Source: Candidatus Latescibacterota bacterium
GTDB lineage: Bacteria; Latescibacterota; UBA2968; GCA-2709665
Length of the DNA stretch: 64,000 bases
Direction: 5' to 3'
Assembly (NCBI GenBank): GCA_965203805.1
Contig: OZ241917.1
Coordinates: 1,664,001-1,728,000, forward strand
Shown one piece after another: positions 741 through 21,220 of this stretch. Position 1 is the stretch's first letter. Each line of letters opens with the position of its first letter. A program made the position numbers and the translations under genes. The notes below the pieces were generated by a model, which did no database searches, was not told the origin of the DNA, and saw only the letters and a list, made by a program, of their open reading frames with translations.

Positions 741-887
741 GGCTAACGTTCTTCAGGTTTACGACGCCCGCTGTCCCGAAGGGCTGGCGCGGCGTTTGCG
801 CTTCTCAGCAAACGACGTGACAGAAGCGGGTGTGCCCGAAGGGCCAAGCGGAACGAAGTGGAGCGCAGCGTAAACCTGATGTTAACC
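741..887 (-). repeat. attC-like site 1
   Basis: GGCTAAC-GTTCT-TCAGGTTTACG...CGTAAACCTGA-T-GTTAACC (+ strand), with an inner stem and nested hairpins. Confidence 0.85.
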
Positions 888-988
888 GATGGCGACGCGG
901 CCCCCTTCAGGGCGAAGCCCTCAACGGGGCCAACATACAGCGCACACTGTGACTCGGTTATACTGCCAAGGATTACGTCGTTCAATTG

Positions 989-1918
989 CTAACCGATATG
1001 AGTTCTAAACCAAGAGGGCGGTCCGTTCCCTCTAAAGTCATGCGAATCTATAGTCTCGGCGATACGTCGTTGCCACCAAACCAGCTGATCATGATATAAC
1101 AGATGCGCTCCCAGCAGACTTGCATGCTGATTCAAGGCCACAAACAGGTTATACCGCTGCCAGAAGGATGAGGAAATCGTTCCATCGCAGTATCCCGATA
1201 TTTGTCCACACGCAAAAGGAATACTGACTGGACACGTATATTTCGGTAGTTTGAAAAAGTCTTCAATGGGATCACCCCAGTCGCATCGATTAAAGTCAAT
1301 AACGTGTAGCTTACCGCCTTGGTCTATAATTATATTACCCGGATGGAAATCGTCATGCTGAAATCGAACAGGGCTTTCGTTAAGCATGATCAAGTGTTCC
1401 TCGATGTAGCGCTCGATTTCCTCCTGCTTGTAGAAGTGTAGGCCCTGATCGCGAGTCTCCTCAACCTTCCGTCTATACTTGGCTATTCTCCGTTTCGGCC
1501 AGTTATAGTCTGGATCTGGACAGGGTAAACTATGCAATTGCCGTAAAACTTGGCTAGCTTGCCATCCATGTTTGAACTGCTCAGACTCCGATAGCTGGGG
1601 GAGTAACTCCTCGGCACAGGTGCCGGGCAAATACGACACAACGGTAAAGCAATGCATATCATCCCGAGTAGTACCCCAGCAGATTGGTTTCGAACAAGGA
1701 ACCTTACGAGCATAGTGCAACTTCAAGAGATCGAATTCTCGTTGCCGTTTCTCTTTGAGCTTCAATGGACTAATCCGCAAGAGGAAGCATGGTCGTTCGA
1801 ATTCCCATAGAATGTATTTCTTATCTGGTGAAAATCCCCTTTTGAGAAACTCAACCCGATCGACTGATTTGAGCTGGGGGGTGATTGCGATAACTTCGTC
1901 GATGACTGATTGATGCAT
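989..1918 (-). CDS. Aminoglycoside phosphotransferase (APH)/choline kinase-fold protein, cassette
   Basis: GFSPDKKY N-lobe, HDDFHPGN Brenner motif, IDFNR, GDP.EDF. Confidence 0.85.
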   Translation of the reverse strand: MHQSVIDEVIAITPQLKSVDRVEFLKRGFSPDKKYILWEFERPCFLLRISPLKLKEKRQREFDLLKLHYARKVPCSKPICWGTTRDDMHCFTVVSYLPGTCAEELLPQLSESEQFKHGWQASQVLRQLHSLPCPDPDYNWPKRRIAKYRRKVEETRDQGLHFYKQEEIERYIEEHLIMLNESPVRFQHDDFHPGNIIIDQGGKLHVIDFNRCDWGDPIEDFFKLPKYTCPVSIPFACGQISGYCDGTISSSFWQRYNLFVALNQHASLLGAHLLYHDQLVWWQRRIAETIDSHDFRGNGPPSWFRTHIG

Positions 1919-2002
1919 TATCTAAGACCTCCTCGCTGTCAAGATGGCCTGCTTGTGCGCGATTACCGGGGTGGGGCGGTTGGGTCATCCTGCGCCGCTT
2001 TC

Positions 2003-2133
2003 GGTTAACGTCCTCACAATTGCCGAAGACGCCCTGTTTTTTTAGGGCGGCTTGGGTGAACATTGGCAGCCTTTTTGCGCCTTTGTCTTCTGCAAAACGG
2101 ATGACAATGTGAACTGGCAATTGTGTGTTACAC
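2003..2133 (-). repeat. attC-like site 2
   Basis: GGTTAAC-GTCCT-CACAATTGCC...GGCAATTGTG-T-GTTACAC. Confidence 0.85.
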
Positions 2134-2213
2134 GATGGCGGCCCTCCCCAATAGAGGCGAAGCCTACAAAGGGGAAGAATAAAGCGCGCATCTTCACAGT
2201 CTGGGTTTTGATC

Positions 2214-3023
2214 TTATGCCAACTTTTTCCCAATGTACAGAATGTGGGGAGACAGGTCCACAATTGCAGGCTCTGAAGCCGTCTTCAAGGTAAGATCCAT
2301 CCAACGTTGCCATCGGGCCTCATCGTTTCTGAGTTGATTGCAGGCTTCTTCCAGCCCTCCTGATAATCCCCCACATCCTGCCATTCCAACACTCACCAAC
2401 CCCGATGATTCTGCCAGTGCTCGAATTTCATCCGCCCGAAAAAAATGAACTGGAACGCCTCCTACCAGAATATCACCTTGCTTAACCAGTTCATCAAAGG
2501 ATGAGTCCAGAAGTCGCTCTTGAAAGTATTTAAACATATGTCGAAGCACAGCGAAATAACCACGCACCCCAAGGTATACAATGCCTTGAGTTTTGGTTAT
2601 CCGATTCAATTCCGAAACGACACTTCCTCTCTCCCCACTATCACAAATATAAGAAAGGGGATCAAGGCATAAAACAGCATCAAAATGGTTGGATTCAAAG
2701 CAAGACAGGTCCCGCACATCACCTACAATAAAATCCAACAGCCTATCTCGAACCTTCACTGGTTCTGATTGAACCTCGGATTTCGCCAGTTCTACGCATC
2801 CTTCAGAAATATCTAGAAGGACAACCTCATATCCTCGACGGCATAACTCAATCGAATAACGCCCAGGTCCTCCTCCTGCATCCAGTACTTTGCCAGTATC
2901 AGGAAGATACTTCAGAAGATGGTGCATTGTGACGTGGAACTCAATGGATTGAAAAGGCGTCTCTTCTAAACGTCTCCATTCTCCATGGGGATTCTCGTTA
3001 TAGATTTGGGCAACCGACTTCAT
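2214..3023 (-). CDS. Class I SAM-dependent methyltransferase, cassette
   Basis: VLDAGGGPGRY motif I, LLDIS, GDVRDL, FDAVL. Confidence 0.9.
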   Translation of the reverse strand: MKSVAQIYNENPHGEWRRLEETPFQSIEFHVTMHHLLKYLPDTGKVLDAGGGPGRYSIELCRRGYEVVLLDISEGCVELAKSEVQSEPVKVRDRLLDFIVGDVRDLSCFESNHFDAVLCLDPLSYICDSGERGSVVSELNRITKTQGIVYLGVRGYFAVLRHMFKYFQERLLDSSFDELVKQGDILVGGVPVHFFRADEIRALAESSGLVSVGMAGCGGLSGGLEEACNQLRNDEARWQRWMDLTLKTASEPAIVDLSPHILYIGKKLA

Positions 3024-3116
3024 GATAGGTACTCAATAGTGAAGGGCTATTGCATGGTCTCACGGATGTACCGGGTTTTGCGCGCTTTCAGGTTCTTTTT
3101 TTTGGGGGCCGCTTTC

Positions 3117-3200
3117 GTGTAACGTTCTCGCCGTGCCCGAACCGCGTAGCGGTTGCGCGAAGGGCCGAATGGCCCGAAGCCGGGCACGGACGTGTTATCT
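3117..3200 (-). repeat. attC-like site 3
   Basis: GTGTAAC-GTTCT-CG-CCGTGCCCG...CGGGCACGG-A-CG-T-GTTATCT. Confidence 0.9.
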
Positions 3201-3944
3201 GACGTGCGACGCGTCTGGTGTGATAGCCTGCGATCTTTGCGACCTGACCCACTGAGCAAGCAAGACAGGCAGGAAGCCATTCAGCCGACGCATCACATCC
3301 CTGGAATTCTCCACAAACACATCCCCGTGGCCGCCATAGGCATCGCCACCGTCCGGACCGACGAGATCCGTCACCCCACGTACGATGACGCAAGCAACGT
3401 CATTCCTGGAAGCGACCCATGCGATCGCGCCCGACTCCCAATCTGCGACAACCGCACCGTACCGGGCTCTCAAGTCCGCAAGATCATCAATGATCAGGTC
3501 TCGGTCCGCTGACAGCAACAGACTCCGAAACTCTCGGTCGTTCATGGGCTCCTGCATCCAGCTCAGGTCAAGCTCTGTGCGGTAAAAGTCAATCGCCTCG
3601 GCCGGATCCAACATCTGCTCCACGATGTCATACACCACGGTGGAAGTGGCGACGACGAACATCCCCTTCTCAACGTAGCCCTTGAATCCACCACAAGTGC
3701 CCAAGTTGATGATCAAGGCAGGCTTCCACCGATCCAGAACGTACTGCGTCGAGGCGGCGGCTGAAATCTTGCCCCAACCGCCCTGGAAGAAGACGAGAGG
3801 AATACTTCTGCCTCCCAAAGTAACCTCATGGCGAAACCACTCGCCAAAGGGCGACTGTGAGCAAATCGTGTTAGGATACAAGCTCCGCACAGCGACCCAC
3901 TCCGTATCAGCAGAAACAAGAACGATTACTTCACCCTCGGGCAT
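3195..3944 (-). CDS. MTA/SAH nucleosidase (PNP_UDP_1) family protein, cassette
   Basis: GGWGKISAAA, INLGTCGG, DWESGAIA, RGVTD; start moved to the ATG of MPEGEV; stop codon lies inside the R-box of site 3. Confidence 0.85.
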   Translation of the reverse strand: MPEGEVIVLVSADTEWVAVRSLYPNTICSQSPFGEWFRHEVTLGGRSIPLVFFQGGWGKISAAASTQYVLDRWKPALIINLGTCGGFKGYVEKGMFVVATSTVVYDIVEQMLDPAEAIDFYRTELDLSWMQEPMNDREFRSLLLSADRDLIIDDLADLRARYGAVVADWESGAIAWVASRNDVACVIVRGVTDLVGPDGGDAYGGHGDVFVENSRDVMRRLNGFLPVLLAQWVRSQRSQAITPDASHVR

Positions 3945-4018
3945 AGTGTCTCCTGCAAGAGCGACCCCAATAGGGTGCCCGAGCAACACGGCTCAGTCTT
4001 CTTTTGATTCCGCATGTC

Positions 4019-4102
4019 AGATAACGTTCCCGCCGTGCTCGAACCGCGAAGCGGTTGCGCGAAGGGCGAATTGGCCCGTAGCCGGGCACGGTCGTGTTAA
4101 GA
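4019..4102 (-). repeat. attC-like site 4
   Basis: AGATAAC GTTCC...GTTAAGA; near copy of site 3. Confidence 0.9.
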
Positions 4103-4822
4103 GAAGTGCGTCCAAGCCAATTTTTCGAGAACTTGCTTCAAATCAAACAAGGATCGGATAACGATTCCCGAGCTCACATGCACTTGACCGATTCGGTCGA
4201 TGAGCACGGGAATCATGTTCGCCCGTCTCGCCCCCAGACAGTCCCAAGTTGGATTGTCTCCGACAAACAGGCACTCTTCTGGTCTACATCCGAAATGACC
4301 TAATGCGCGACAAAACATAGGTTGGGCAGGCTTACGCCATCCTACATCTGAACAAAAAATAGCCACCTCGCATCGCTCCGATAGGCCATGTCGCTGCAGT
4401 TCTTCAAACCAAGGCTCGCTCGGTGCACCCCAAGGGCAGTTTGACAGGATTCCTATTCGGCAGCCATCCGACAGGAGCGCATCCAGAGCCGGAAGGGTGT
4501 CTTCATAGATCTTGGCAACAGAAAAGATTGGGCCGAGGAAGGCGCGACAGATCGGAAGCCACTCTTCCTCTGAAACGCCGCCTGCGACCGCGAAAATCCG
4601 ACCAAGCCTCTTGTGGAGTGGGCGAACGCGACTGTTCTTGGCTTCGTAGTTCTCCGCTGCGACACGACGCGCGATCTCAGAATCCGAAGGCAAGTCGTGT
4701 CCTGAACGACCCAATGCCTCTTTGGCTGCCTGAATCCCTTCCCGAAGCAATGGAGGAAACGCTTCCCTGCGATAGTACTGGACAAGGGTGTCGCCAAGGT
4801 CAAACAGCAGAACTGGTCTCAA
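4097..4822 (-). CDS. HAD-superfamily hydrolase, cassette
   Basis: FDLGDTL, LSN, KP, VGDNPTWD motifs; TTG start. Confidence 0.9.
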   Translation of the reverse strand: MRPVLLFDLGDTLVQYYRREAFPPLLREGIQAAKEALGRSGHDLPSDSEIARRVAAENYEAKNSRVRPLHKRLGRIFAVAGGVSEEEWLPICRAFLGPIFSVAKIYEDTLPALDALLSDGCRIGILSNCPWGAPSEPWFEELQRHGLSERCEVAIFCSDVGWRKPAQPMFCRALGHFGCRPEECLFVGDNPTWDCLGARRANMIPVLIDRIGQVHVSSGIVIRSLFDLKQVLEKLAWTHFS

Positions 4823-4856
4823 ACCTGAAAGTCCTATTCGAATCTTGAAGCATTTC

Positions 4857-4942
4857 TCTTAACGTTCCCGCCGTGCACGAACTGCTGAAGGCAGTTGCGC
4901 GAAGGGCCGAATGGCCCGGAGCCGTGCACGGACGTGTTATAG
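4857..4942 (-). repeat. attC-like site 5
   Basis: TCTTAAC GTTCC CGCCGTGCACG...CGTGCACGG-A-CG-T-GTTATAG; same family as sites 3 and 4. Confidence 0.9.
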
Positions 4943-5009
4943 GCTGTGCCTGGTTGGGGTTAACAGAAGCCAATCGCTCCAAACTATAAATTTCTCCGGG
5001 ACGTCCCAT

Positions 5010-5465
5010 TCAGTAATTAGCCTTTCCTCTGACCGTCCTGACCCGATTGAAGAGATGAGGCTGTATCTGTGGGTACGTCAGGTCTTCAGGAAGGTCCGAA
5101 AGAAAGGCAAGCTCTTGGATCTCGGATTGCAATTTCTCCGCCATTTCCGTCACCCTAGCGTAGTAGAGTCTCCCGTATTGGATGTTCCCGTCACGTTCCA
5201 CCGAGTACGTGCAGACCTCCCGAATCTCTGTGGCACGCGCTCCGGTTTCCTCGCGCAGTTCCCTCGTAGCAGCCGCCAAAGGTGTTTCCCCCGGCTCAAT
5301 GTGTCCACCAGGGATCTCCCAGCTTTCACGATCTCTATGTCTGCAAAAGATCCACCTTCCCCGAGTTTGCGCGGCAATCACCACGTAGGTTAGATTAGTA
5401 TCTGGGATGCTCTCCGAACTGTGGAACGAGACAGTCATTTGTTGATGTACCAACATTTCAGGCAT
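5010..5465 (-). CDS. NUDIX hydrolase, cassette
   Basis: Nudix box [23 protein letters not shown]; ATG directly follows GTTATAGGCA. Confidence 0.9.
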
Positions 5466-5468
5466 TGC

Positions 5469-5555
5469 CTATAACGTTCTCGCGGGCTGCGAACCTGCGA
5501 AGCAGGTTGGGTCGGAGGCGCGAATGCGCCGCAGCCGCAGCCCGTCGTGTTATGT
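5469..5555 (-). repeat. attC-like site 6
   Basis: CTATAAC-GTTCT-CG-CGGGCTGCG...CGCAGCCCG-T-CG-T-GTTATGT. Confidence 0.9.
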
Positions 5556-5632
5556 GCAGTTGCAGCCCCGGTTACCGTCGGCCTTGCCACGGATGGCAAG
5601 GCCGAAAATGGACTGATACCTCAGAAATTCAA

Positions 5633-6406
5633 TCATGCTTTCTTCCTGCGAAATGCCAAAGCCGTTTCGTAGTGCTTGGTAATCGATCCTCCGTAGTTCC
5701 TGCCTATCAGGTCAGCGATACCGTCAAATAGGAGCGCGCGATTGTACTCGGGCAGCGCGATGTGGTCAGAGTAGGTTCCAAGGAGTTTGATGTACTGTTC
5801 CGCAGAGTAGTTTGCGCTCCAGGGATACACTCGGTGGATAGGATCGGAAAAAGCAGTAGTTCCGGGTTCCGGAGACTCTGACCTCGTCGGAGTACTGGGA
5901 TCCTGAGGGGAATCTGAAACTACATAATGCTTGGCATAAACTCCCTGGACTTCAGCAAAGAAACCTTCGTCTTTTCTTACATGTTGGTTAGAGAAGATGG
6001 CCAATGATCCCCTGGCCTTCAGGGTGTCACGGGCTCTGATGAATCTGACTCTTGGACTCACCCAGCGGAATGCAGTCGCGGAGATCACAAGGTCAAACTT
6101 GCTAGTCGAGTCCCAATCTTCGAAAGCACACAGGACGAAGCGAACGTTCTTGTAGTTGTTGAGTCGCGCCCTCGCAACCTCGATCAAATCGTGGCCAATA
6201 TCCAAACAGGTCATTTCGCAACCGAGGGTGGCAAATAATCTCGAAGCCTGTCCGGTTCCACATCCGACTTCCAGGATTTTTCCGCTTCTGTCCATTCCGG
6301 AGAGGTCCAAGACATCCCTGACAAGCTCATCAGGGTATCCGGGCCTCACTTCGTCATAGAGCGAGGCAATGGCATTGAAAGTGGTTTTGAGATCAGGGCG
6401 GGGCAC
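5633..6406 (-). CDS. Class I SAM-dependent methyltransferase, cassette
   Basis: YDEVRPGYP, ILEVGCGTGQ, FDLVISATAF. Confidence 0.9.
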   Translation of the reverse strand: MPRPDLKTTFNAIASLYDEVRPGYPDELVRDVLDLSGMDRSGKILEVGCGTGQASRLFATLGCEMTCLDIGHDLIEVARARLNNYKNVRFVLCAFEDWDSTSKFDLVISATAFRWVSPRVRFIRARDTLKARGSLAIFSNQHVRKDEGFFAEVQGVYAKHYVVSDSPQDPSTPTRSESPEPGTTAFSDPIHRVYPWSANYSAEQYIKLLGTYSDHIALPEYNRALLFDGIADLIGRNYGGSITKHYETALAFRRKKA

Positions 6407-6469
6407 TGGAAATTTCCATGATTTGGGCTTAGGCGGCGCGGGGAGGCGTCGCTCTGGGACTGCAATTTC

Positions 6470-6556
6470 ACATAACGTTCTCGCGGGCTGCGAACCTGCG
6501 AAGCAGGTTGGTGCGAAGGGGCGAAAGCCCAGAAGCCGCAGCCCGACGTGTTATAT
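6470..6556 (-). repeat. attC-like site 7
   Basis: ACATAAC...GTTATAT; near copy of site 6. Confidence 0.9.
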
Positions 6557-6571
6557 GCTGCCGTGGTCGTC

Positions 6572-7384
6572 TCAGTCCTTTGGCTTTTCACCTATGTAGA
6601 GTATGTGTCGAGAGGAAGCTACCATGCTTTGCTCTCCACTGATTTCGAATAGAAGGTTCAACCAAAGTTCTCTTTGCTTTCCCTCAAGTTTGTTGTAGCT
6701 CTCGTCGTCTGCAGAGATGGCTGGCTCGACGCCGGCGATCTTGAGTGTGCGGAATCCGACCGTCTCGTGCATGGGGGCCACCTCATTAAGACGTACGAAG
6801 TGACCTCGAAATCCCCCTTTTGGCGCACCGGCGGGGCGGCGGCCGTGCTGGACGAGTGACCTAACGTAATCCTGGTCCTCAATCCAGGAGGGATTCTCTA
6901 TGATAAGATTGCCGAGAACACCCAACCGAGAAAGCAGTGCTGAGAAGATCACTCCCCCAGGTTTGACGCAGGCGTACGCAGACTGCAAAGCTGCTGTTCG
7001 ATCAGCTTCGAGCACCAGGTGGTAGAGAGGTCCCATAAGGAGCACCGCATCGAAGTCGTGAAGCGGTACACCATCCAGCTTTCGGGCGTCAGCCGTCCGG
7101 AAGTCAATCTGACCAGATAGGCCGAGTTCTTCCGCCTTCGCATTGCAACGGGTAACATATTCATCAGCGAGATCGACAGCCGTTATCTGGTAGCCACGCT
7201 CCGCGAGGGCAAAGGTGTAGAACCCTGTCCCGAAGCCAATCTCCAGAAGCCGGCCAGTGGGTGGAAGGTGCAGATCCAAATAGCGCCAGATGATCTCACC
7301 CTCGAGTTGGTGGCGTTGTAGTCTGGTAGCCTCAATTTCTCAACCAGCATTGTACATCTCACGTATATCAGTCAAATCATCCAC
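6572..7384 (-). pseudogene. SAM-dependent methyltransferase cassette with in-frame TGA at codon 15
   Basis: GTG 7384 with GAGGA RBS gives MDDLTDIREMYNAG*EIEATRLQRHQLE, in frame with ORF 6572..7279 (LLEIGFGTG, FDAVLLMGPLYHL); TGA at 7340-7342. Confidence 0.75.
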
Positions 7385-7410
7385 GCGGTGTCCTCTTCGA
7401 CCACGGGTGC

Positions 7411-7505
7411 ATATGACGTTTCAGGATTGCAGACGCCTGCCGAAGGCAGGTGTGCCGTCAGGCCGGAGCGACTGAAGGGCGCGAAGCTGCAAACCGTTGT
7501 TATGG
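7411..7505 (-). repeat. attC-like site 8 with mutated core (GTC instead of GTT)
   Basis: ATATGAC-GTTTC-AGGATTGCAG...CTGCAAACCGT-T-GTTATGG; related to site 9. Confidence 0.8.
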
Positions 7506-7792
7506 GTCTGTGCCTCCCCCTTTCGTGAAGCAACGAACGTGCAGAGATTGCGCGCAAGCCTTCAGATTTCCCCCCGATGTCTCGATCGATTGAGCAATCA
7601 GCCTCAATCCGAAAAAAACAGCAACGCGGCGACGCGATAAAACCCTCCGAAACGGGGCGTTATCGACGTATAGAAGGACGTTTTTTCCCTACACGTCCAG
7701 TGACCTGATGTATCCTGGTAATCCGCCGTCTAATCGCCTTTATTTACAAGCACATATTCGAATTAATGTCCCCGAAGACTTACGAATCAAGG

Positions 7793-8476
7793 TCAGGCTT
7801 TGGTTGCAACGACCGCCAGCAGAGATGGGAGCGTGTCACCATCCAATTCGGCAACTGATTCGAGCCGCAAGTCAGCAGCGAGCAGTTTGTTGAAGAGTTC
7901 GGCAAGAGGAACGTGCCGGACACCCACCTTCGACCGAATGCCCTCACCCAATCCAGGACCTTCGAAAACTCGTGCTGTTTCCCGGTAACCCGGATGGATC
8001 TTGGCAATTCCCGTGTCTCTCTCGATGGTCGCAAATGGTCCCAGAAAACACGGATGTGTGCCCAGGATAACGAAACGCCCGTGACGATCCAGGACGCGGT
8101 GTGCTTCCGAGAAGAATGGCCCTACATCATCGAAATCAGTGAGTGTCAATACCGACACGACGCGTCGAAACGTGGCTGACGAGAAAGGCAGACTACGAGC
8201 ATTGGCTAGGACAACCCTCGGAGAGCGATCACTTGCCAGTCGAAGCTGGTCGGCTGAAAGGTCGACTCCAATCACGGACCAGCCAAGCGATTGCAGTAGC
8301 TGGAGATGCACACCTGTTCCGCAACCAATGTCCACACAGAGTCCGGAGCCGGGTCCAACCAAACGCGATAGATGAGCTGGGATGTTCTCGTAGAAAGGCA
8401 TCTTGAGATATTCATCGTACCACGTCGCCCAGCCGTCGTATCGGGCGCCATCCTGGTTGGAATTCAAGGAAGGCAT
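7793..8476 (-). CDS. Class I SAM-dependent methyltransferase
   Basis: VDIGCGTG, GVDLS, LPF, HPCF. Confidence 0.85.
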   Translation of the reverse strand: MPSLNSNQDGARYDGWATWYDEYLKMPFYENIPAHLSRLVGPGSGLCVDIGCGTGVHLQLLQSLGWSVIGVDLSADQLRLASDRSPRVVLANARSLPFSSATFRRVVSVLTLTDFDDVGPFFSEAHRVLDRHGRFVILGTHPCFLGPFATIERDTGIAKIHPGYRETARVFEGPGLGEGIRSKVGVRHVPLAELFNKLLAADLRLESVAELDGDTLPSLLAVVATKA

Positions 8477-8628
8477 AGTCTCCTTCGGATGAGTAGTCCG
8501 ACGACTTCCTGCCTGCTTCGCGTCGCCCTCCTCCGCCGTTATCGGCCGCTAAGATCGCCCAAAGCAGTCCCGTATGTGTGTCCATGAAGGGATCGTTCCA
8601 GTTACTGCCGCCAGGGAGACTCGACAGC

Positions 8629-11103: not shown

Positions 11104-11167
11104 GGAGTCGTGGCTGGGGCGGGCCTTTTGCACGTATATAGACCCCATCCCATTCACGGGAAGTTCG

Positions 11168-11920: not shown

Positions 11921-12004
11921 TTAGAGTTCCCACAATTCAATATCGTATTCGAGCTCTCGAATCACGCTATTTATCTTGTGCCTCAACTTCGGATCGCTTT
12001 CTTT
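11921..12004 (-). pseudogene. C-terminal remnant of a gene cut by IS21
   Basis: Open frame KESDPKLRHKINSVIRELEYDIELWEL* abuts the IS21 end; short, so weakly supported. Confidence 0.35.
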
Positions 12005-12921: not shown

Positions 12922-13024
12922 AGCGATGACCTCCAAAATCTGTACCGTCTTTTTTTACATGCAGAGAACGGCCTCCCATGATTCACGGCCGCTCATTCAT
13001 GATCGAGAAGCCGAGAATTATCAG

Positions 13025-13074
13025 GCTGAACCCAGCCAGCAGCAGCCCAGGCTCGGCTGTCGCCGAAGTTATGC
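13025..13074 (-). repeat. Degenerate attC-like site (cassette 3' end)
   Basis: GTTATGCGCC at 13068 complements GGCGCATAAC at 13740-13749; the hairpin body is not recognisable. Confidence 0.5.
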
Positions 13075-13088
13075 GCCGGCATTGTCTT

Positions 13089-13694
13089 TCAGACGTTCTC
13101 TATCCCACGTTTCCGCAGGTACCCGACGATCTCTTCTCGTGTCTCAAGACCCTCGAATATGACAGCATTGTAGATGTGTCTTCCACTCGAATCGGGTGTT
13201 CTTCCCTCTGTCGTCAGGAGAGACTGCTTTATCTCGATGATCTTCCTTCTGTCGTTCTCGGTCATCCTCTCCTTAACTGTCGCCATCTGCGCTTTGTCCT
13301 GCTCCAGCAGTTCTGCCTTGGTCGACCAAAGGTCTACTTTCCAGGGAATCTGACGGTCAGGCCTGTCTACCCTCCAAGTCCAGTGGAGCCCCTCGGGCTG
13401 GCCATCTCGGGGAAAATGGGCACAGTCGTGGAAGCTCATTGTCAGGACCTTACCGAGTGAGGCGACTTGGCTTCCAAGCTCAAAAAACCTATCGATGGAC
13501 CAAGGGTCCGGTTCCATCACCATGTGGATGTCCAAGTCGGGCCATACCATCGTGTTCATTTCGTAGCTGCCCCGGTACCAAACATCTCCGAAAGAGTTTA
13601 GGACTTTACCAAGTCCGCACTCGGAGATCAGCTCATCCGCCTCTGCCTTGAGGTCTTCTGCTACCTCGAGCGGCTCAACTGGCACCGAGCACAT
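13089..13694 (-). CDS. Pol-beta-superfamily nucleotidyltransferase-like protein, cassette
   Basis: GSY....MVWPDLDI (GS-x-DxD) and WKVDLW third Asp; start placed after site 9. Confidence 0.7.
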   Translation of the reverse strand: MCSVPVEPLEVAEDLKAEADELISECGLGKVLNSFGDVWYRGSYEMNTMVWPDLDIHMVMEPDPWSIDRFFELGSQVASLGKVLTMSFHDCAHFPRDGQPEGLHWTWRVDRPDRQIPWKVDLWSTKAELLEQDKAQMATVKERMTENDRRKIIEIKQSLLTTEGRTPDSSGRHIYNAVIFEGLETREEIVGYLRKRGIENV

Positions 13695-13742
13695 CCCTTG
13701 AGTGTCTCCAAAGCAATGGGGTGATGACTGGATTCTGCTGGC

Positions 13743-13880
13743 GCATAACGTTTCAGGGTTGCAGACGCCTGCCGTCCCGAAGGGTTGGCGCGACGGCTGC
13801 GTAGGCAGACGGCGTGACAAGGCAGGTGTGCCGCAGGCCCGAGCGACCGAAGGGAACGATGCCGCAACCCGTTGTTACCT
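13743..13880 (-). repeat. attC-like site 9
   Basis: GCATAAC-GTTTC-AGGGTTGC...GCAACCC-G-T-T-GTTACCT. Confidence 0.85.
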
Positions 13881-13943
13881 GTTCGTTGCGACCGGGGTGG
13901 GGAGTGGCCATGCCAGGACGCCAAGGCCACCCACCGTTTCTCC

Positions 13944-14762
13944 CTACTCTTTGTCCGGCAGGAATCGGAAGAGATGGGTTTGCCATCTTGACAACGGACT
14001 TTCCTGCGTCTGTTCAAAGAAGGCGATTGAGGCGCGAGCATTGAGACTTTCAGATCTGTTCAGCGGATTGCAGAAGCTGTATTCAATGCCTCCATTCTCT
14101 TCCTCTCGCACATATGACTCCAAGCAGTCCATCAGATCGGATCGTTCAAGGTCGAACGGAACACAGTCAGTTGTCGCCAGAATCCCCTCGTGGTAGAACC
14201 CGGGCACATCGTGTTCGAGTCCGACAATCCTGGAATGTCCGTATTGGTATGAAATGCTAAGGAAAACAACACCACCACTCTTCAGGTAGTCCCTCGCTCC
14301 GCGCAGGATGACTCTTCGGAACTCGAAACCATCATCATCCTCACTGGAAGGTGGATTCGCCAAGACGAAAGAGACCTGTCCCTTCAATGAAATCAGCGTC
14401 TCCAGATCTTGGGCGGCGTAGGGAACGTAGGAGTCTGAATGGAAGAAGCCTGTCTTCTTTGCTGAATCATTCAGTTCCGCATTCTGTAATGCTGTCTTGA
14501 TGTTGGCCTCATCAATATCAAGACCAAGAACACGACTCACCGAAGGGATTCTTGCAGCAGCGATGCTAAGGCATCCTCCCCCACAGCCCCAATCGAGCCC
14601 AATGCCCGAGAGCAGGCCTTGGTGAGTCCCGATGGCCTCCAATGAGATCCTGCTTGCGGGAGTTATTGGGAAAGTGTCAGGGGGGCTCATCAGCCGCATA
14701 TCACCGAGACCAAAGGTGTCTGGGTCAGCAAGCGTAAGGTCGGGTACCTGGGTCTCTTCCAT
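13944..14762 (-). CDS. SAM-dependent methyltransferase (PrmC/RsmC-like NPP motif), cassette
   Basis: LDWGCGGG, GLDID, LANPPS; GGAGG RBS before MEETQ. Confidence 0.8.
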   Translation of the reverse strand: MEETQVPDLTLADPDTFGLGDMRLMSPPDTFPITPASRISLEAIGTHQGLLSGIGLDWGCGGGCLSIAAARIPSVSRVLGLDIDEANIKTALQNAELNDSAKKTGFFHSDSYVPYAAQDLETLISLKGQVSFVLANPPSSEDDDGFEFRRVILRGARDYLKSGGVVFLSISYQYGHSRIVGLEHDVPGFYHEGILATTDCVPFDLERSDLMDCLESYVREEENGGIEYSFCNPLNRSESLNARASIAFFEQTQESPLSRWQTHLFRFLPDKE

Positions 14763-14845
14763 TCTGCCTCCGTTGTTGTAGTGGTTAGTCAGTCCTCTCG
14801 TTTGGCGCCAAGACGGCGCCATCTTCCCAGGGAGGTCGCAATGAC

Positions 14846-14967
14846 AGGTAACGTTCTCGCCACTTGCGAACCCACCCCGCTCTGTGAGCGGGTTGCCGTC
14901 AGGCCAAGGAGCCCTTTGACAAGCTCAGGATAAACTCCGCGACGCAGCGCAAGTGGACGTGTTAGCA
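14846..14967 (-). repeat. attC-like site 10 (belongs to the RT cassette)
   Basis: AGGTAAC-GTTCT-CG-CCACTTGCG...CGCAAGTGG-A-CG-T-GTTAGCA. Confidence 0.85.
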
Positions 14968-14992: not shown

Positions 14993-16561
14993 TCAAACTC
15001 GCATCGGATTCTGTCTCGCCCAATGCGTAATCGCGATTTCGATTGGGTCAAGTCGACTCTCAAGGGATTGGTACCAGTGTTTCCGCTCATCTGATGGCAA
15101 GCAACTACCGCCATAGAGCACCGCCCGCCTCTCCCAAGGGGAGAAATCAAACACGTTGCGTTTCCGTGTACGGAACCAAGAATCCTGGAGAGAACGTCCA
15201 AGACACAGAATTGCCTCCCTACTTGTGATGTGATCAGGCCACCTCGAGCATATAGACACGAACCGGTCCGCGTTGTTAAAGCCTGAATCCTGAGCAAAAA
15301 GAGAGAGCAACCACATTCTGTGGAACTCCAGGTGTGACACCAACGAGCTATCCAATGCCGTCAAGAGCTGTCGTCCCGCACTTGCCTTTTCGGCTCCCGT
15401 GAGTCCGTGCAATCCTCCAATGTATTGGACGACATGGCTGAATACGGGATATAGCTTCTCCAGGTTATCCATAACCACTTGAAGTGATTCGCGGTTGCCC
15501 AACTGAGAAAGTCTGCTAAGCAGAAAACGAGTTACTGGAATGTCAATTTCCTCTCCTTCAAGTTGCGCATCTAATAGACCGCCAAGATTCAGATTGGCGA
15601 TCTGCACCTTCTGTTCTTCTGTTAGGCCCTCCCAGGTTATCGGTTCATACAAGCTCTGGAGTCCAAGGTTGGCTGCTATTTGCTGAAAGCTTTGAGTAAG
15701 ACTGGTTATCTCCAACTCGCGATCACTGGACAAGTATCTGTGGTTGAAAACTTCCACTGGCAGAATTCTTGTTTTGTGCTGCTGCAAAGTCAAACCATGA
15801 TTCTCAAAAAGGACGTTCGCCAAAAATGCCAGTCTCTCATATGCCTCTCGCTTTGTGTTGCAGAAGATTCGAAAGTCGTCGCTGAATCGTACAAAAGTCC
15901 AACCTTCTGAGATCAGTGATCTGTCAACGTCATCGAGTGCAACCTCGGCAAGCAGTCTTGATGCCGATGGACCGACGGGAATGCCGTAGGAATAAGACTC
16001 CGACCAACCATTCAGGAGGTTATCTAAAGCGAACGCATGGTTCGTTTTGGTGGTTGCTGCGGTTAAGGCGTTTTTTATCCTGTGGTGATAGATTCTCGGA
16101 AAGAAATCCGCAATATCTGCAAGCACTACCCAGCTGTAATTGAGGGCTGCAAGCTCCTTACATTTCTTTAGGTAGGAGTGGTAACCGTAGTCTGAATCAA
16201 ACATGGTGCCGTCAGATTGGGGCAAAAACCGATAGGAATGAACGACGTCATCTGACTTGCTGACTCTCCGATTCTCAATGTCCACACCGACCTCGTAAAC
16301 GAGGGCTGTGAACACGAGGAAGTCCGCGGGATCTAGCTGTGTTGATATTCTAAACCCAAATTGGTGCTTGGGAGTAAGGCATCGTCTTGATGGACGCACG
16401 TCCCAATCCAGCACATCCTCGTCGGAGAGCCAACCAAGGATGTCGGATGAGCGGTCATCGATCGCACGAAATTCAAAGATCCCGGGGAAAATGTCGGTAT
16501 CCCCCTTGATGAGAGCCTGTTTAAGGGCCCAATTGAGGCTTTGCCTATTCAGCTTGAGCAT
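14993..16561 (-). CDS. Reverse transcriptase of the UG/Abi (defence-associated, DRT-like) type with helical C-terminus, cassette
   Basis: GDTDIFP N-terminus, PK...FR, DIADFFPRIYHH, GIPVGPSASRLLAE, catalytic RFSDD, L.LQQHKT, then ~250 aa predicted alpha-helical region. Confidence 0.9.
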   Translation of the reverse strand: MLKLNRQSLNWALKQALIKGDTDIFPGIFEFRAIDDRSSDILGWLSDEDVLDWDVRPSRRCLTPKHQFGFRISTQLDPADFLVFTALVYEVGVDIENRRVSKSDDVVHSYRFLPQSDGTMFDSDYGYHSYLKKCKELAALNYSWVVLADIADFFPRIYHHRIKNALTAATTKTNHAFALDNLLNGWSESYSYGIPVGPSASRLLAEVALDDVDRSLISEGWTFVRFSDDFRIFCNTKREAYERLAFLANVLFENHGLTLQQHKTRILPVEVFNHRYLSSDRELEITSLTQSFQQIAANLGLQSLYEPITWEGLTEEQKVQIANLNLGGLLDAQLEGEEIDIPVTRFLLSRLSQLGNRESLQVVMDNLEKLYPVFSHVVQYIGGLHGLTGAEKASAGRQLLTALDSSLVSHLEFHRMWLLSLFAQDSGFNNADRFVSICSRWPDHITSREAILCLGRSLQDSWFRTRKRNVFDFSPWERRAVLYGGSCLPSDERKHWYQSLESRLDPIEIAITHWARQNPMRV

Positions 16562-16608: not shown

Positions 16609-16638
16609 CTGCCTGCTAACTACCGTATTACCGGCAAT
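16609..16638 (-). other. Candidate attI/dif-like simple recombination site
   Basis: CTGCCTGCTAA-CTACCGTA-TTACCGGCAAT; left arm is the RT cassette 5' end, and no attC hairpin follows. Confidence 0.45.
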
Positions 16639-16683
16639 CTGCCAAGTGCGTGCTGGGAACTGCCACTTACCCAATCGGAATGA

Positions 16684-17609: not shown

Positions 17610-17695
17610 AATGGATGCCTCGAAAGAACGTGAAGATCGCACGAACCCGCTGCAGCTACAAGATAAAGCAAAGCCCTCTGGTCAGCGAGGGCTTT

Positions 17696-17758
17696 GAACT
17701 GCTGCGAGTTGGGCGAAGACCCTTGTGGCCTGAGCCGTGCACTGTCGTGTTTTGCGGC
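17696..17758 (-). repeat. attC-like remnant (family of sites 3-5)
   Basis: GAACTGCTG..AGTTG.GCGAAG...GAGCCGTGCAC.G.CGTGTT aligns with site 5; end GTTTTGCGGC pairs with GCCGCATAAC at 20240-20249. Confidence 0.65.
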
Positions 17759-17826
17759 GCTGCTCTCTCTGCCTTTAGAAAACGGAGCTTGTGTCAGGCC
17801 TGTCGAACCAGCTCTCGAATACCTGT

Positions 17827-20106
17827 CTACTTCTTTGCACCATATCTCTTCAGCAGTGACCCGATGTCTACATCCTCCGAGTCTATGCGAGCGTACTCCT
17901 TCCTGCCCTGCGGTTCCTCGCTCCAGGCCAGAGGCGTCGCCCATTCCGCGCCCGCCAGGTTCGGATCGGCTTCCGCCTCCAGCATGAACCTGGCAAGTTC
18001 GGGCCATTCATAGAGCACTGCCATGGCCAGGGGCGTCGATTGCCTCTCTCCGCCCAGAACGTTTATCTCCGCACCGTGTTTCAGCAGCTTCTCTGCAAAC
18101 ACGATCCGGTCCCTCTCAGTGACGTGCCACGTGATCTCCGCAGTCCAATGCAGGGGTGTCAAGCCGCTTACTTTCGCACGGGCATTTGGATCGAATCCTC
18201 CTTCAAGGAGAAGCTCGAAGCACTCGTAAAAGTGCTCCACACACGCCTTTCCCGGATTGCCGGGACACCGCAGCCTCCACATGCGCATGGCCTGGCACAA
18301 CACGTCGTGCATTTCGCTCTCCGTAAAACTCGGACTCTGTGAGAGGCAGACTGCCACCAGGTCCGGATGCCCGCCGTGGACGGCTCCCTTCAGGACCTCC
18401 TTTGCACACGATGGATCGGAACTTACGAGCGCGGCATCGACGGAGACATTGTCGCTGTTCGCGGCGTAGAATCCTGGAGAGGCACCGTCGTCGAACCCGG
18501 GAAATGCCCCATGTCGCAGCAACAGTTTCTCCATCGCGTCGTTCCCGTTCGCGATCGCCCAGTTCAAGGCGTTGCCGGACGCATCCATCACGGTATGCGC
18601 CGATGCCCCGTGCTCCAGGAGCAGCACTGCCATCTCCAGATCGTCATTGAGAGCCGCGGCGTGCAGCGGCGCGCCTCGCTCGGCCACGGGATAGCCTTCG
18701 TACTTGTCATACGGTGTATCCGGGTCCGCACCCCGTTCCAGGAGGAGGCGCACCACCTCGAGGTGTCCCTTGTCGGCGGCAATCGAGATCGGATACGCGT
18801 CCATTCCAGGATAGTTCCGGGCCCAGTCGTTCACGGCTTCGGGATTGGCATCCAGAATTCTCCGCGCCCCGTCTACGTCGCCGATGGCGCAGGCAACCCA
18901 CAGGTCGTATTCGGCGCCGTGTCCCAGCAGGATTCCGCCGATTACCGGCCACAGGGGGCTTGGCGGCGGGTCCCATCCGCGTTTGGGCCGCGGCCCTAGC
19001 GCGAGGTGGATGGCCTTCTTCCCGCGTGCGTTCACTTCGTTGGGTTCGGCCCCGCGAACCAGGAGTTCCGTGACCACCGGGATATGATGGTATTCCACGG
19101 CGACGTGAAGTGCCGTATTCCCTGACTTGTCTACTCCGTGAATCGCGGAGGGGTCACCATCGAGCAGCTGTCTTACCGCTTCAACATCGCCCTTGCCCGC
19201 GGCCTGGCAAAGGGCGATTCCCAACTCAGTCTCACCGGTCCGCCTGGCTCGCCATTCCTCCATTGACGCGACCACATCTGCATGACCCTTGCTTCGGGCC
19301 ATATCCAAAGCCGAAACCCGCTCTCCATATGTTACCCTGGTGGGACTGGCGCCGGCGTTCAGCAGGTGCTCGACAACCGCCAGGTGTCCCTCCCGTGCCG
19401 CGTAGTGTATGGCCTGATACCCCTGTTCGCCGTCTCGGTGCGCCAGCTCCGGCTTCTTCTCCAGGATGGCCTTGATTCGATCCAGATCTCCCTCCTGAGC
19501 GGCGTTGCAGATTCCGACTACACTGACGAAAGCATCGTCCTGGGAAGGCGCGTTTTTGCGCAACTCTCTCTTCGCCATTGCGAGTAACCCCTTTTCAAGG
19601 CGCTTCCGCGCCGATCGCAGCCGGTTGTTGACCGTGTCCGGCGAGACCTGCAGAAACGCTGCAATCTCTTGATGAGAATGAGCACCCATGTAGAACATCG
19701 TCGTGACCGCACGTTCCGTCTCTGGGAGCGCGTCAACCGCGTTCTGAATCTGGACCCTCATTTCCTGCGCTTCCAATTCATCCAGCGGTGAAGGACTGCC
19801 TGACGGAACATCGTGCACGTCTTCGATCGGAACCATTTCCGGGCGCTTCTGCCTCGCGAACTGAGTGCAACAGGACCAAACTATCGCTTTGAACCAACCG
19901 GGGAAGGCTTCAGGACTTCGCAGATCCTCCAATTTACGGTACGCGATCAGAAACGCTTCCTGCGCGGCATCTTCTGCCAGGTGGAAGTCCCCCAGTATGC
20001 TGTAGGCATACCCCGCAGCCATGTCTTGAAACCGTAACACGACACCCTCATAGGCACGCAGGTTTCCAGATTTGACTGCACGCAATAGGTCGGATAGTCT
20101 ATCCAC
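17827..20106 (-). CDS. ECF sigma factor fused to ankyrin repeats
   Basis: Region 2 DFHLAEDAAQEAF..FPGWF, region 4 SHQEIAAFL..TVNNRLRSARKRL, many ankyrin repeats (GNTALHVAV, GAPLHAAA, GLTPLHW, STPLAMA). Confidence 0.92.
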   Translation of the reverse strand: MDRLSDLLRAVKSGNLRAYEGVVLRFQDMAAGYAYSILGDFHLAEDAAQEAFLIAYRKLEDLRSPEAFPGWFKAIVWSCCTQFARQKRPEMVPIEDVHDVPSGSPSPLDELEAQEMRVQIQNAVDALPETERAVTTMFYMGAHSHQEIAAFLQVSPDTVNNRLRSARKRLEKGLLAMAKRELRKNAPSQDDAFVSVVGICNAAQEGDLDRIKAILEKKPELAHRDGEQGYQAIHYAAREGHLAVVEHLLNAGASPTRVTYGERVSALDMARSKGHADVVASMEEWRARRTGETELGIALCQAAGKGDVEAVRQLLDGDPSAIHGVDKSGNTALHVAVEYHHIPVVTELLVRGAEPNEVNARGKKAIHLALGPRPKRGWDPPPSPLWPVIGGILLGHGAEYDLWVACAIGDVDGARRILDANPEAVNDWARNYPGMDAYPISIAADKGHLEVVRLLLERGADPDTPYDKYEGYPVAERGAPLHAAALNDDLEMAVLLLEHGASAHTVMDASGNALNWAIANGNDAMEKLLLRHGAFPGFDDGASPGFYAANSDNVSVDAALVSSDPSCAKEVLKGAVHGGHPDLVAVCLSQSPSFTESEMHDVLCQAMRMWRLRCPGNPGKACVEHFYECFELLLEGGFDPNARAKVSGLTPLHWTAEITWHVTERDRIVFAEKLLKHGAEINVLGGERQSTPLAMAVLYEWPELARFMLEAEADPNLAGAEWATPLAWSEEPQGRKEYARIDSEDVDIGSLLKRYGAKK

Positions 20107-20242
20107 TGCCGTTCCTTCGAGAAGGTCCTCTATTCTAAAGGAGGCACCCGAGGCATGGAATTGGTAGAAAAAAGGGAAAGAAGTGCGAATAGGAAGAGCT
20201 GTACTTACTGTGAGGAGCTCTCACAGCGATCTTGCCAATGCC

Positions 20243-20381
20243 GCATAACGGTCTTGCGGTGTGCGAACCCTGCCGTCCCGAAGGACTGCGTTGCGTTCGC
20301 GCCTCTCAGCAAATGACGTTACAGAGGTGAGGTTGAGTCGGAGGGAGCGAAGCGACCGGAGCGCAAGGCCGCGTGTTACAC
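20243..20381 (-). repeat. attC-like site 11
   Basis: GCATAAC-GGTCT-TGCGG...CCGCG-T-GTTACAC; internal TCTCAGCAAAYGACGTKACAGA shared with site 1. Confidence 0.8.
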
Positions 20382-20539
20382 GCTTGCGGCGCGCCCCTTC
20401 CACGGCGAATCCCTCAACGGGGCTGAAATAAAGTGCACACCATAGACAGGTGGCTTCCTGCTTTTTCGTCTTGTTTCTAATGAAAATCAGGCGCCCGTCA
20501 ATAGCACCCAGGAAAGAAACAGAGTTTGAACTTCGCCCG

Positions 20540-21034
20540 TTAGATGGGGTTCGCCTTGAAGAGTCGGAAAAGGTCACCTTTACCGGGACGTTCGGATGTC
20601 AAAATCAGCATCAACTTTGCCAGCAGGTCAGCCCGGTCGAAACGTTTGAATTCCGGGTACAGCCCGATACGCCAATGGAGATAAGCTTCAAGCTGGTTCA
20701 CATCAGGGAAGATCTGTCTGGCCGCAAGGAATTCTGCTTGCAGGGCACGACGATGTGCGTAGGCATGCGAGCGTGAGGCCAGTTTGTGCTGGATTTCCAC
20801 CTGCTCGTGCAGTGCGATTAAGTGCGCGTACTGCTCATCGAATTCGATTAAATCCGCCGGGATGTAAATCGTTCCTGTTTCGTCGTAGAAAACGAGATCG
20901 GGTGTATTGCCTCTATAGCGAAACACCGAATAGGAGAGGGCAAGGTCTGCCACGACTGCCTGCTCAGTGCGGATGACGTTTTGCTTAATCGCGTCGAGCG
21001 TCTTGGTAGCTTCCGGATGTGGCAATCGAAGCAT
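20540..21034 (-). CDS. Hypothetical protein with HExxE...HxxAH motif, cassette
   Basis: 164 aa ORF exactly between complementary cassette ends; LHEQVE...HAYAHRRALQAE. Confidence 0.75.
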   Translation of the reverse strand: MLRLPHPEATKTLDAIKQNVIRTEQAVVADLALSYSVFRYRGNTPDLVFYDETGTIYIPADLIEFDEQYAHLIALHEQVEIQHKLASRSHAYAHRRALQAEFLAARQIFPDVNQLEAYLHWRIGLYPEFKRFDRADLLAKLMLILTSERPGKGDLFRLFKANPI

Positions 21035-21127
21035 ACGTAAGGTCTCTTCGGTGGGATGTGTTCTGGGTTTCTGCTCTTGTGCACGATTTGCAGGGGTGTG
21101 GTGGTTGGGTCGTCCTGCGCCGCTTGC

Positions 21128-21220
21128 GTGTAACGTCTAAGCATCACGAACCTGCCGGTGATTTTTCGGGAGGTTGTGGACGGTGGGATTCCGGTGAGGT
21201 GCATAAAACTGGTGTTGCAC
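21128..21220 (-). repeat. attC-like site 12 (degenerate stem)
   Basis: GTGTAAC GTCTA...GGTGTTGCAC; left arm complements 20375-20383. Confidence 0.65.

Follow-up and report, generated by a model that had tools for sequence, protein, structure and literature searches.

An integron-type cassette array on a Candidatus Latescibacterota chromosome, and an XerA-like recombinase that heads the arrays of relatives and was probably lost here

The stretch of DNA analysed here (the window) is a 64,000-nt segment, beginning at genome position 1,664,001, of the 5.87-Mb single-contig chromosome of a Candidatus Latescibacterota bacterium (contig OZ241917.1). By architecture, the run of genes and hairpin sites that it contains is an integron cassette array; formally it is a set of clustered attC sites without an integron integrase (CALIN), the defining integrase being absent both here and at those arrays of relatives that were examined. 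We consider it probable, at roughly two chances in three, that this is an integron-type array whose XerA-like recombinase heads the corresponding arrays of relatives and has been lost from this genome, the link to the recombinase being suggested by comparative evidence only. Integrons are defined by the integrase IntI and its special domain; arrays without IntI occur frequently and await an explanation, as does the way in which IntI arose from Xer-like enzymes.

Reading of the sequence together with the list of open reading frames (ORFs) shows a run of mostly single genes in the window, with all cassette genes on the − strand, separated by imperfect palindromes of 76–141 nt that start with TAAC and end with GTTA on the + strand. 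The pattern TAACGTT-N40–70-GTGTTA occurs five times in the window and was matched in none of 100 shuffles. A covariance model (R1) was built from a MAFFT alignment of 17 sites located in the window or next to it in the genome, its stem being written by hand as RNAalifold gave no consensus on the MAFFT alignment of sites. R1 recovered 11 full sites and one weak relic in the window, and 23 matches in the whole genome, all on the + strand and all within 1,601,395–1,684,378. Because every match falls in this one stretch, the sites belong to a single array about 85 kb long, of which the window covers the right-hand quarter, the recombinase-proximal 24 kb. The original prediction, made from the sequence alone, had placed the system at 741–21220; sites were confirmed within that range, but it was too narrow, as the array reaches about 62 kb past the left end of the window and a relic site lies to the right at 23791–23879. 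The stem, made up of four pairs in the R box and 11 in the inner part with a single bulge, had 85.2% of its cells paired, a level that none of 500 shuffles attained (73.4% on shuffled data) and that compares with 32–46% in slid controls; eight of the 15 pairs vary on both sides. The sites therefore have the imperfect inverted repeat with AAC and GTT bounds and the covarying inner stem by which attC is recognized; Rfam, searched at gathering thresholds, returned no match and holds no such family. With 23 sites in an IntI-less genome, the definition of a CALIN (at least two attC sites with no integron integrase nearby) applies, on the presupposition that the sites are attC. The cassette genes identified with Pfam encode an APH-family kinase, five S-adenosylmethionine (SAM) methyltransferases, PNP_UDP_1, HAD, NUDIX and glyoxalase proteins, a fusion of an extracytoplasmic function (ECF) sigma factor to ankyrin repeats, and a reverse transcriptase.

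Order and content of the array vary between relatives and natural populations, and this comparison indicates that the cassettes are mobile. When cassette-plus-flank segments were compared all-against-all by BLAST across the sampled loci, 11 homologous cassette pairs were found in non-syntenic contexts, within the genomes G013, G015 and G000 as well as between genera and families. In eight of these, homology begins 0–16 nt before the left TAAC and extends 5–57 nt past the start of the right site, +5 and +6 being the usual end points; of the others, two begin inside the left hairpin and one shows the opposite pattern. On account of these limits each hairpin is assigned to the cassette that follows it in + coordinates, on its right and downstream of the gene, and the crossover is placed by sequence comparison in TAA|C on the + strand, that is, in the R' box. 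A joint between 14848 and 744 agrees with this position: in public run X2, one of several runs whose contigs are labelled sponge metagenome or metagenome, a 1203-nt contig passes from 14225–14848 straight into 744–1322 with nine letters fitting both sides. Another contig of this run omits exactly one 1001-nt unit (5532 to 6534), and a contig of run X1 links 6477 to 13781 via 31 other letters; window parts without contig cover in runs X1, X2, X4 and X19 do not count as absence. In G012, which is 96–98% identical where shared, the cassette at 5486–6538 comes after the block 7597–14828 instead of before it, and no match was listed for window 741–5486 or for the reverse transcriptase cassette. As the prediction required, gene order is not invariant among relatives, with G012 and contigs of X1 and X2 all differing. 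The further proposal that the cassettes form a non-canonical system was not supported in the form given, both the architecture and the crossover being classical.

No recombinase gene of any kind was found at this array. The best match to the IntI model TIGR02249 in the genome scored 93.4 bits against a cut-off of 265 and lies at 3.37 Mb, far from the array, as do all three tyrosine recombinases that pass PF00589, at 3.37, 2.27 (the housekeeping Xer) and 1.36 Mb. A complete integron, with an intI gene encoding the IntI-specific domain beside the array, was found neither in this genome nor among the array-linked genes of relatives. The gene that adjoins the arrays of relatives matches TIGR02249 in two stretches at 181–241 bits, with model positions of about 179–234 missing; IntI was nevertheless the best NCBIfam match for four of the seven proteins scanned, and the order of SAM-like and catalytic domains is that of IntI. 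Aligned with five canonical IntI sequences, the relatives' recombinase lacks the 31-aa and 10-aa IntI insertions near patch III. Against NF040815 (XerA type) it scored 164–235 bits (cut-off 220), that is, at or near the cut-off, and two of the seven proteins passed. For the full-length enzyme of G047 (L016:1216–2343), an intact gene with three sites 1.5–5.8 kb downstream, the closest PDB entry was VchIntIA (2a3v) at 146.7 bits in two stretches, followed by XerA at 128.9 and 122.5 bits. Unlike housekeeping Xer enzymes, these recombinases are linked to cassette arrays and are not at dif. Many full-length members are also extended at the N-terminus by a domain of some 90 aa (e.g. L016:1216–1500; L041:8548–8847), which IntI lacks; in four of eight domain-bearing proteins HARP (PF07443) matched weakly at this place (P0089 at 26.7 bits with a cut-off of 25, three others at 22.0, 20.2 and 18.1 bits), the other four giving no HARP match and an ESM Atlas search with the domain giving only unnamed clusters below 0.9. 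A HARP-like identity is thus a lead only.

As the initial loci had been chosen partly for nearby sites, an independent search was made in which the full-length G047 protein was compared with 168 genomes from the phylum; it returned 42 places in 28 genomes at E ≤ 1e-50. Twenty new places were fetched and then scanned with R1, seven further places remaining outside the count. An array lay within 2.3 kb, on the upstream side of the cassette genes, at 12 of the 20 (L055, L056, L058, L060–L062, L064–L067, L070, L072); of the other eight, one showed a different geometry (L069), four had no array (L054, L068, L071, L073) and three ended at a contig edge on the side where an array was expected (L057, L059, L063). 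Among testable loci picked by the recombinase alone, therefore, 12 of 17 had an array at this end, and the linked tyrosine recombinase that the original prediction called for is, in relatives, an XerA-like gene. Two arrangements occur, one divergent from the cassettes as in classical integrons, seen in one clade (G016, G057, G105, G106, G108–G110), and the other co-directional. The prediction of a distinct class of cassette and recombinase was supported as regards the enzyme, which fails both IntI tests and is linked to the arrays in relatives, but not as regards the cassettes.

The end of the first cassette was located by searching for the cognate partner of the right flank of the last site. 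The TAAC found there is followed by sequence conserved within each recombinase clade, which we term attI-like: in the divergent clade (five genomes) it reads TGCTTGTATGCGAAC-N5-GTTCGCATAATGGCC..., 190–256 bp before the recombinase start, and in G011, G013 and G044 it reads TACGGGATTACCGAACAGTTACGGTAAT, 43–131 bp from the recombinase gene. In the window, the beginning of the G011/G013/G044 junction sequence follows TAAC at 16617–16620 and then diverges, with no recombinase after it, while 24544–26000 is syntenic with the stretch just past the recombinase in G011 and G013. In view of this truncated attI-like remnant and the shared border, we read this genome as one that has lost its recombinase and whose array head has been rearranged.

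The two ends of each cassette carry complementarity specific to that cassette, which had been predicted to run beyond the 7-bp R box. The left end, read from GTT, was compared with the reverse complement of the right end and positions 5–18 were scored. The 11 window cassettes matched at 11, 12, 10, 11, 11, 11, 12, 6, 11, 8 and 12 of the 14 positions (nine of the 11 at 10–12), the single value of 6 being due to a 1-nt indel, as against an average of 4.4 and a maximum of 10 for 158 non-cognate pairs of ends. The sample was widened by running R1 on 21 loci of nine related genomes, on the window and on its two adjoining loci, which gave 174 matches at E ≤ 1 from 29 sources and 141 pairs of adjacent sites; the 124 pairs spaced less than 3 kb apart averaged 9.07 of 14, and 1434 non-cognate pairs 4.71. 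The property held for 118 unique cassettes from the window and the loci of the nine related genomes, for which statistics were calculated by position. Positions 5–7 and 9 are identical in 75–83% of cognate pairs (26–35% of non-cognate), position 8 is a conserved G (116 and 110 of the 118 ends), and position 10 is identical in 55%. At position 11 identity falls to 5%, with G on the + strand end facing A on the other end in 86 of 118, a combination that gives a G.T wobble on the non-coding strand only; both the G at position 8 and this wobble had been noted in the prediction. Identity returns at positions 12–16 (61–75% of cognate against 25–41% of non-cognate pairs) and reaches background by about position 20. 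This outer arm (12–18), which had likewise been anticipated, matched at an average of 4.31 of seven positions, compared with 2.22 with shuffled partners, and none of 2000 shuffles reached the observed value. It is not a by-product of related inner arms, because at an equal inner match (at least 4 of 5) cognate pairs averaged 4.86 (n = 83) and non-cognate pairs 2.60 (n = 572). The original observation on the cassette ends was thus confirmed in all its details. A start codon as the explanation for A11–T12 at the cassette start was considered separately and rejected, as the cassette genes begin 60–100 nt further in.

Part of this repeat is known from other integrons. Most cassettes are described, in the relevant part of Bouvier (2009), as self-pairing past the 7-nt R boxes, to 9–11 consecutive nucleotides. 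For comparison, we examined nine class 1 cassettes from five plasmids, locating the sites by short motifs and leaving out the catB2 pair in L046, where the preceding cassette is without its own attC. Cognate identity ran for 11, 12, 10, 12, 12, 8, 12 and 12 nt in VIM-1, aac(6')-Ib4, aph(3')-XV, aadB, aadA/aadA2, cmlA1, psp and qacL, respectively, and broke at 4 nt in aadA1, yet with ten of the first 12 positions matching. Since class 1 runs reach 8–12 nt, the first 10–12 nt of the repeat correspond to the known extension and are not new; what exceeds it in pairing is limited to the outer arm and the fixed G.T. In eight class 1 cassettes the 7 nt past a 2-nt gap matched at 1–3 positions, the level expected by chance, and neither an outer arm, nor a fixed wobble at position 11, nor a 5/1 spacer was seen in this small control of nine. 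The R arm described here pairs to about 17–18 nt with a fixed G.T at position 11, whereas class 1 arms pair over 8–12 nt without a wobble. R1 found no class 1 site in three loci, which shows sequence distance only.

Each site consists of TAAC, five unpaired nucleotides, a stem with a one-base bulge on the 3' arm, one nucleotide and GTTA. The predicted geometry (AAC-N5-stem...stem-T-GTT) was therefore seen, with central spacers of 5 and 1 nt plus the bulge in place of the classical spacers of about 5 and 6 nt that the class 1 sites possess. The bulged base, on the 3' arm of the + strand (the R''-L'' arm, by which extrahelical bases are defined), is A or T and not the classical G; an extrahelical base and a better-folding bottom strand, both expected of attC, are nonetheless present, the + strand being the bottom strand. 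Energies were computed with DNA parameters for 123 cassettes, as arranged in the array and as circles joined in silico. Mean values were −29.9 (bottom) and −27.4 (top) kcal/mol in the array form and −37.3 and −33.3 kcal/mol in the circle form; the bottom strand was the more stable in 98 and 102 of the 123, respectively, and the circle outdid the array form in 108. In the array only the GTTA/TAAC portion of the R stem pairs (median of four consecutive base pairs in 158 sites), and the flanks of one site derive from different cassettes. For this reason the long arm is confined to the excised circle, or to pairing of cassette ends across a cassette in single-stranded DNA, and we infer that selection acts on the circle form. 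The prediction of a longer, strand-selective site in the circle is supported to the extent that folding is better for the circle than for the array form and for the non-coding than for the coding strand, and that the outer arm pairs.

The features of the window that make up the array are as follows, with R1 scores in bits and arm matches out of 14.
744..884 (+, the bottom strand): attC-like site s1, long type; R1 56.1 bits
747..2008 (−): cassette of the s1 hairpin and an APH-family kinase gene (989–1918; Pfam APH 110 bits); arms 881–898/1992–2009, 11/14
2006..2130 (+): attC-like site s2; R1 34.3 bits
2009..3122 (−): cassette, SAM methyltransferase (2214–3023); arms 2127–2144/3106–3123, 12/14
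3120..3197 (+): attC-like site s3, short type, fold computed; R1 77.6 bits
3123..4024 (−): cassette, PNP_UDP_1 phosphorylase-like gene (3195–3989); arms 10/14
4022..4099 (+): attC-like site s4; R1 69.7 bits
4025..4862 (−): cassette, HAD hydrolase (4097–4822); arms 11/14; a homologue in G057, 87.6% identical, has another context and TAAC boundaries
4860..4939 (+): attC-like site s5; R1 75.7 bits
4863..5474 (−): cassette, NUDIX hydrolase (5010–5465); arms 11/14
5472..5552 (+): attC-like site s6; R1 77.1 bits
5475..6475 (−): cassette, methyltransferase (5633–6406); duplicated 27 kb upstream in this genome, with a further copy in G015; located elsewhere in the array of G012
6473..6553 (+): attC-like site s7; R1 83.8 bits
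6476..7416 (−): cassette, methyltransferase (6572–7279); arms 12/14
7414..7502 (+): attC-like site s8, with TGAC replacing TAAC; R1 40.0 bits
7503..13067: interruption of the array, with a 197-bp repeat (7597–7796), a methyltransferase gene, a GntR-aminotransferase gene, a SAICAR-synthase-like gene (+), an ankyrin gene and insertion sequence (IS) fragments; absent from the run X1 contigs that join 6477 to 13781
ending at 11100: orphan right half-site within the interruption, located by sequence
13068..13748 (−): cassette with its own attC cut away on the left side; arms 13068–13085/13732–13749, with four substitutions in 18 and G/A at position 11
13746..13877 (+): attC-like site s10, long type; R1 45.2 bits
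13749..14851 (−): cassette, methyltransferase (13944–14822; Pfam); 14848 is joined directly to 744 in the run X2 contig
14849..14964 (+): attC-like site s11; R1 65.7 bits
14852..16619 (−): first cassette of array A, Drt8 reverse transcriptase (14993–16561; PADLOC Drt8 530.7 bits, full length); arms 11/14
16617..16650 (+): TAAC and truncated attI-like remnant (TACCGTATTACCG...), with no hairpin or recombinase gene after it; junction sequence shared with G011, G013 and G044
17690..17752 (+): right half of an attC-like site, left half missing, located by reading the sequence
17749..20248 (−): cassette, ECF sigma factor fused to ankyrin repeats (17827–20106); arms 8/14
20246..20378 (+): attC-like site s14, long type; R1 52.8 bits
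20249..21133 (−): cassette, 164-aa ORF without a family (20540–21034); arms 12/14; its end shares homology with the first G011 cassette
21131..21226 (+): degenerate attC-like site, seen by eye and missed by R1
23791..23879 (+): relic of a long-type site; R1 18 bits, E 0.14
24544..26000: conserved chromosomal border of the array (peptidoglycan-binding protein, family B polymerase), 80–82% identical to the stretch beyond the recombinase in G011 and G013

Our working model is that each cassette consists of one − strand gene with its own imperfect hairpin site, and that crossover would occur at TAA|C on the + (bottom) strand. The cassette-specific inverted repeat would be an R arm that linear insertion splits, so that its halves are reunited only in the excised circle. 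The bottom strand of the circle is predicted to form an 11-nt arm ending in the G.T wobble and clamped by an outer stem of 5–7 bp, followed by the asymmetric 5/1-nt spacer and an 11-bp inner stem with one bulged base. An XerA-like enzyme may then insert cassettes by attI × attC recombination and excise them by attC × attC recombination, exchanging one strand on the folded bottom strand. Past the cleavage point the cassette start reads TTANNNGMMAT, which has the 11-nt length of an Xer arm, and on the cleaved strand a gap of 6 nt precedes the 11-bp inner stem; the opposite strand, being almost spacerless, would block a second exchange. Wobble and outer arm probably aid folding and the choice of strand, to which the contrast at position 11 between G.T (bottom) and C.A (top), together with T.T or T.G at position 10, might add. 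In the Xer-mediated integration of folded single-stranded CTX phage DNA, one strand is exchanged on a folded hairpin and the second exchange is blocked.

Several observations weigh against assigning the array to this recombinase. Beyond the lack of any recombinase here, only two of the 14 genomes of the genus have the gene, both N-terminally truncated. The enzymes belong to a wider family of 6250 proteins (E ≤ 1e-30) from Dehalococcoidia, Firmicutes and others, variously named XerD, tyrosine-type recombinase or ‘site-specific tyrosine recombinase/integron integrase’, and this family is not array-specific. In a midpoint-rooted tree of 35 sequences canonical IntI formed one long-branched clade (100/100), joined in a polytomy by four lineages linked to arrays and by homologues from other phyla, with housekeeping Xer outside; the array-linked recombinases are not one clade. 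Homologues on plasmids adjoin IS91 transposases, and in G020 the recombinase is itself part of a multi-copy unit with such a transposase. A recombinase without the IntI domain may prove unable to use a folded site. In two of three copies of one cassette (L023:13102–13183 and L043:2381–2468) the right hairpin arm is kept and the left arm unpaired; these hairpins appear to be hybrid sites that crossover in R' alone does not explain, and exchange between similar sites may account for them. The rearrangement joints share 9–12 letters and, as there is no recombinase at this array and most genomes of the genus lack one, the shuffling observed could be old or could reflect homologous exchange between similar sites. 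Finally, the class 1 control comprised only nine cassettes.

An ordinary CALIN would account for much of what is seen if a canonical IntI built the array and was later lost, the pairing of ends being the known R-box extension plus drift and the XerA-like genes being neighbours without a connection to it or having arrived later. In its favour, the cassettes have the classical architecture and crossover, CALINs are common according to Cury et al. (2016, PMC4889954), R-box pairing of 9–11 nt is reported by Bouvier (2009) and 8–12 nt was seen in eight of nine class 1 cassettes, and canonical IntI above the cut-off does occur in the class, in six of 61 genomes. None of the six, however, is in the genus. 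R1 sites were found at E ≤ 0.001 in 40 of the 61, and among the 19 genomes with at least five sites only G017 has IntI; the three canonical IntI loci examined (G017, G054, G060) have no R1 array within 20 kb and showed no hairpin array beside the gene, though cassettes belonging to those integrases are not thereby excluded. Moreover, the class 1 controls have neither the outer arm nor the G/A at position 11, and the position and polarity of the recombinase and its attI-like junctions recur. We therefore regard an array built by canonical IntI as unlikely. As a separate observation, the canonical IntI of G017 (L007:1465–2454) directly precedes a 314-aa recombinase of the XerA-like family (2828–3679), and G017 has further copies of all or part of this pair at other places.

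A second possibility is that IS91-type rolling-circle elements with a tyrosine recombinase, targeting TAAC, make or reshuffle the arrays, so that the recombinases are parts of IS elements and not platform enzymes. Besides the plasmid homologues, this is favoured by the G020 element, a 2.5-kb unit of recombinase, Y2_Tnp/Zn_Tnp_IS91 transposase and its own hairpin present in six copies of 94–99.7% identity (L035:10154–12662; also in L036, L038 and L070–L072), which in the three copies examined (L035, L036, L038) is joined to a cassette end at TAAC. Copies of it account for two of the 12 positive and one of the four negative loci of the independent search. The description of an IS91-linked element nevertheless fits the G020 element only: none of the other 24 loci scanned has an IS91 transposase within 3.2 kb of the recombinase, their far-side neighbours are ordinary chromosomal genes, and the recombinase of G011 and G013 is flanked by the attI-like site on one side and by the syntenic chromosomal border on the other. 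An origin of the arrays from IS91 elements is consequently improbable. That the sites are non-mobile intergenic hairpins (repetitive extragenic palindrome-like repeats or terminators) between ordinary genes is very improbable, for although they follow genes and are G+C-rich, they occupy a single locus and a single strand, have cassette-specific flanking arms, and bound at TAAC the same cassettes in different contexts, in an order that varies among relatives and populations.

The probable interpretation thus remains an integron-type array served by an XerA-like enzyme, and it can be set against known systems. Sedentary chromosomal integron arrays and CALINs, as characterized in the portions of Cury et al. 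(2016, PMC4889954) concerned with them, share the co-oriented, mostly single-gene cassettes and the imperfect palindrome bounded by AAC and GTT; they likewise have crossover in the R' box, a hairpin that moves with the upstream gene, a bottom strand that folds better, small-enzyme and defence gene content, and variable order among relatives. They differ from the Latescibacterota sites, in which only 4 bp of the R box pair in the array and no IntI accompanies such arrays in the genomes examined. From IntI the relatives' enzyme differs in its score (181–241 against 265 bits), in its missing insertions and in its frequent N-terminal domain, but it resembles IntI in having an attI-like site at the array head and a divergent or co-directional gene. 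IS91 elements with a tyrosine recombinase fall in the same wide family, and one Latescibacterota lineage is such an element that inserts at cassette ends, whereas most array-linked copies have no transposase beside them. Of non-IntI recombinases near attC, the sections of Cury et al. (2016, PMC4889954) on this topic mention four that are intermediate between IntI and Xer, each with fewer than three sites, which were set aside, and IntI is defined by its extra domain in the relevant text of Ghaly et al. Our own full-text search turned up no report of integrons in Latescibacterota or of Xer-like enzymes at the head of cassette arrays.

A broader hypothesis, which we hold tentatively and would rate somewhat short of an even chance, is that Latescibacterota harbour a second, IntI-independent lineage of gene capture. 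Stand-alone XerA-like enzymes without the IntI domain, some with a HARP-like N-terminus, would recombine a conserved attI-like site with folded single-stranded sites in which the R arm is a full Xer-type arm, clamped by the outer stem, and in which the wobble replaces part of the role that contacts of IntI with extrahelical bases play in strand choice; many CALINs would then have an overlooked recombinase, and IntI may have arisen from within the family. If true, this could explain some CALINs and would provide a route to the recombination of folded DNA, intermediate or parallel, that can be tested, as well as new structure-specific recombination sites, with the long, cassette-specific R arm and its fixed wobble serving as a mutable handle on strand choice.

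Further features of the window lie within or beside the array. The Drt8 gene (14993–16561, −; PADLOC 530.7 bits, E 1.3e-159) is a single-gene defence system carried as a cassette beside the attI-like remnant. The ECF sigma/ankyrin fusion (17827–20106, −) is cassette-borne and has paralogues of 76–82% identity elsewhere in every genome of the genus. Within the interruption, part of a GHL6 glycosyl-hydrolase-like gene (12595–13065) recurs in many genomes of the genus with 90–96% identity, at their arrays or close to them, and in G013 a full 757-aa GHL6-like gene is the first gene adjoining the attI-like site. The repeat of about 197 bp at 7597–7796 resembles a miniature inverted-repeat transposable element, with dozens of copies at 92–97% identity in all genomes of the genus, and is missing from one run X19 contig (joint 7597 to 7793). 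IS fragments with HTH_32/HTH_29 and HTH_23 domains lie at the left window edge (3–422, −) and in the interrupted part of the array (12097–12717, +). Directly beside the array border, and syntenic in G011 and G013, is a gene (25407–27533, +) for a DNA polymerase of family B that includes an RNase H-like exonuclease domain.

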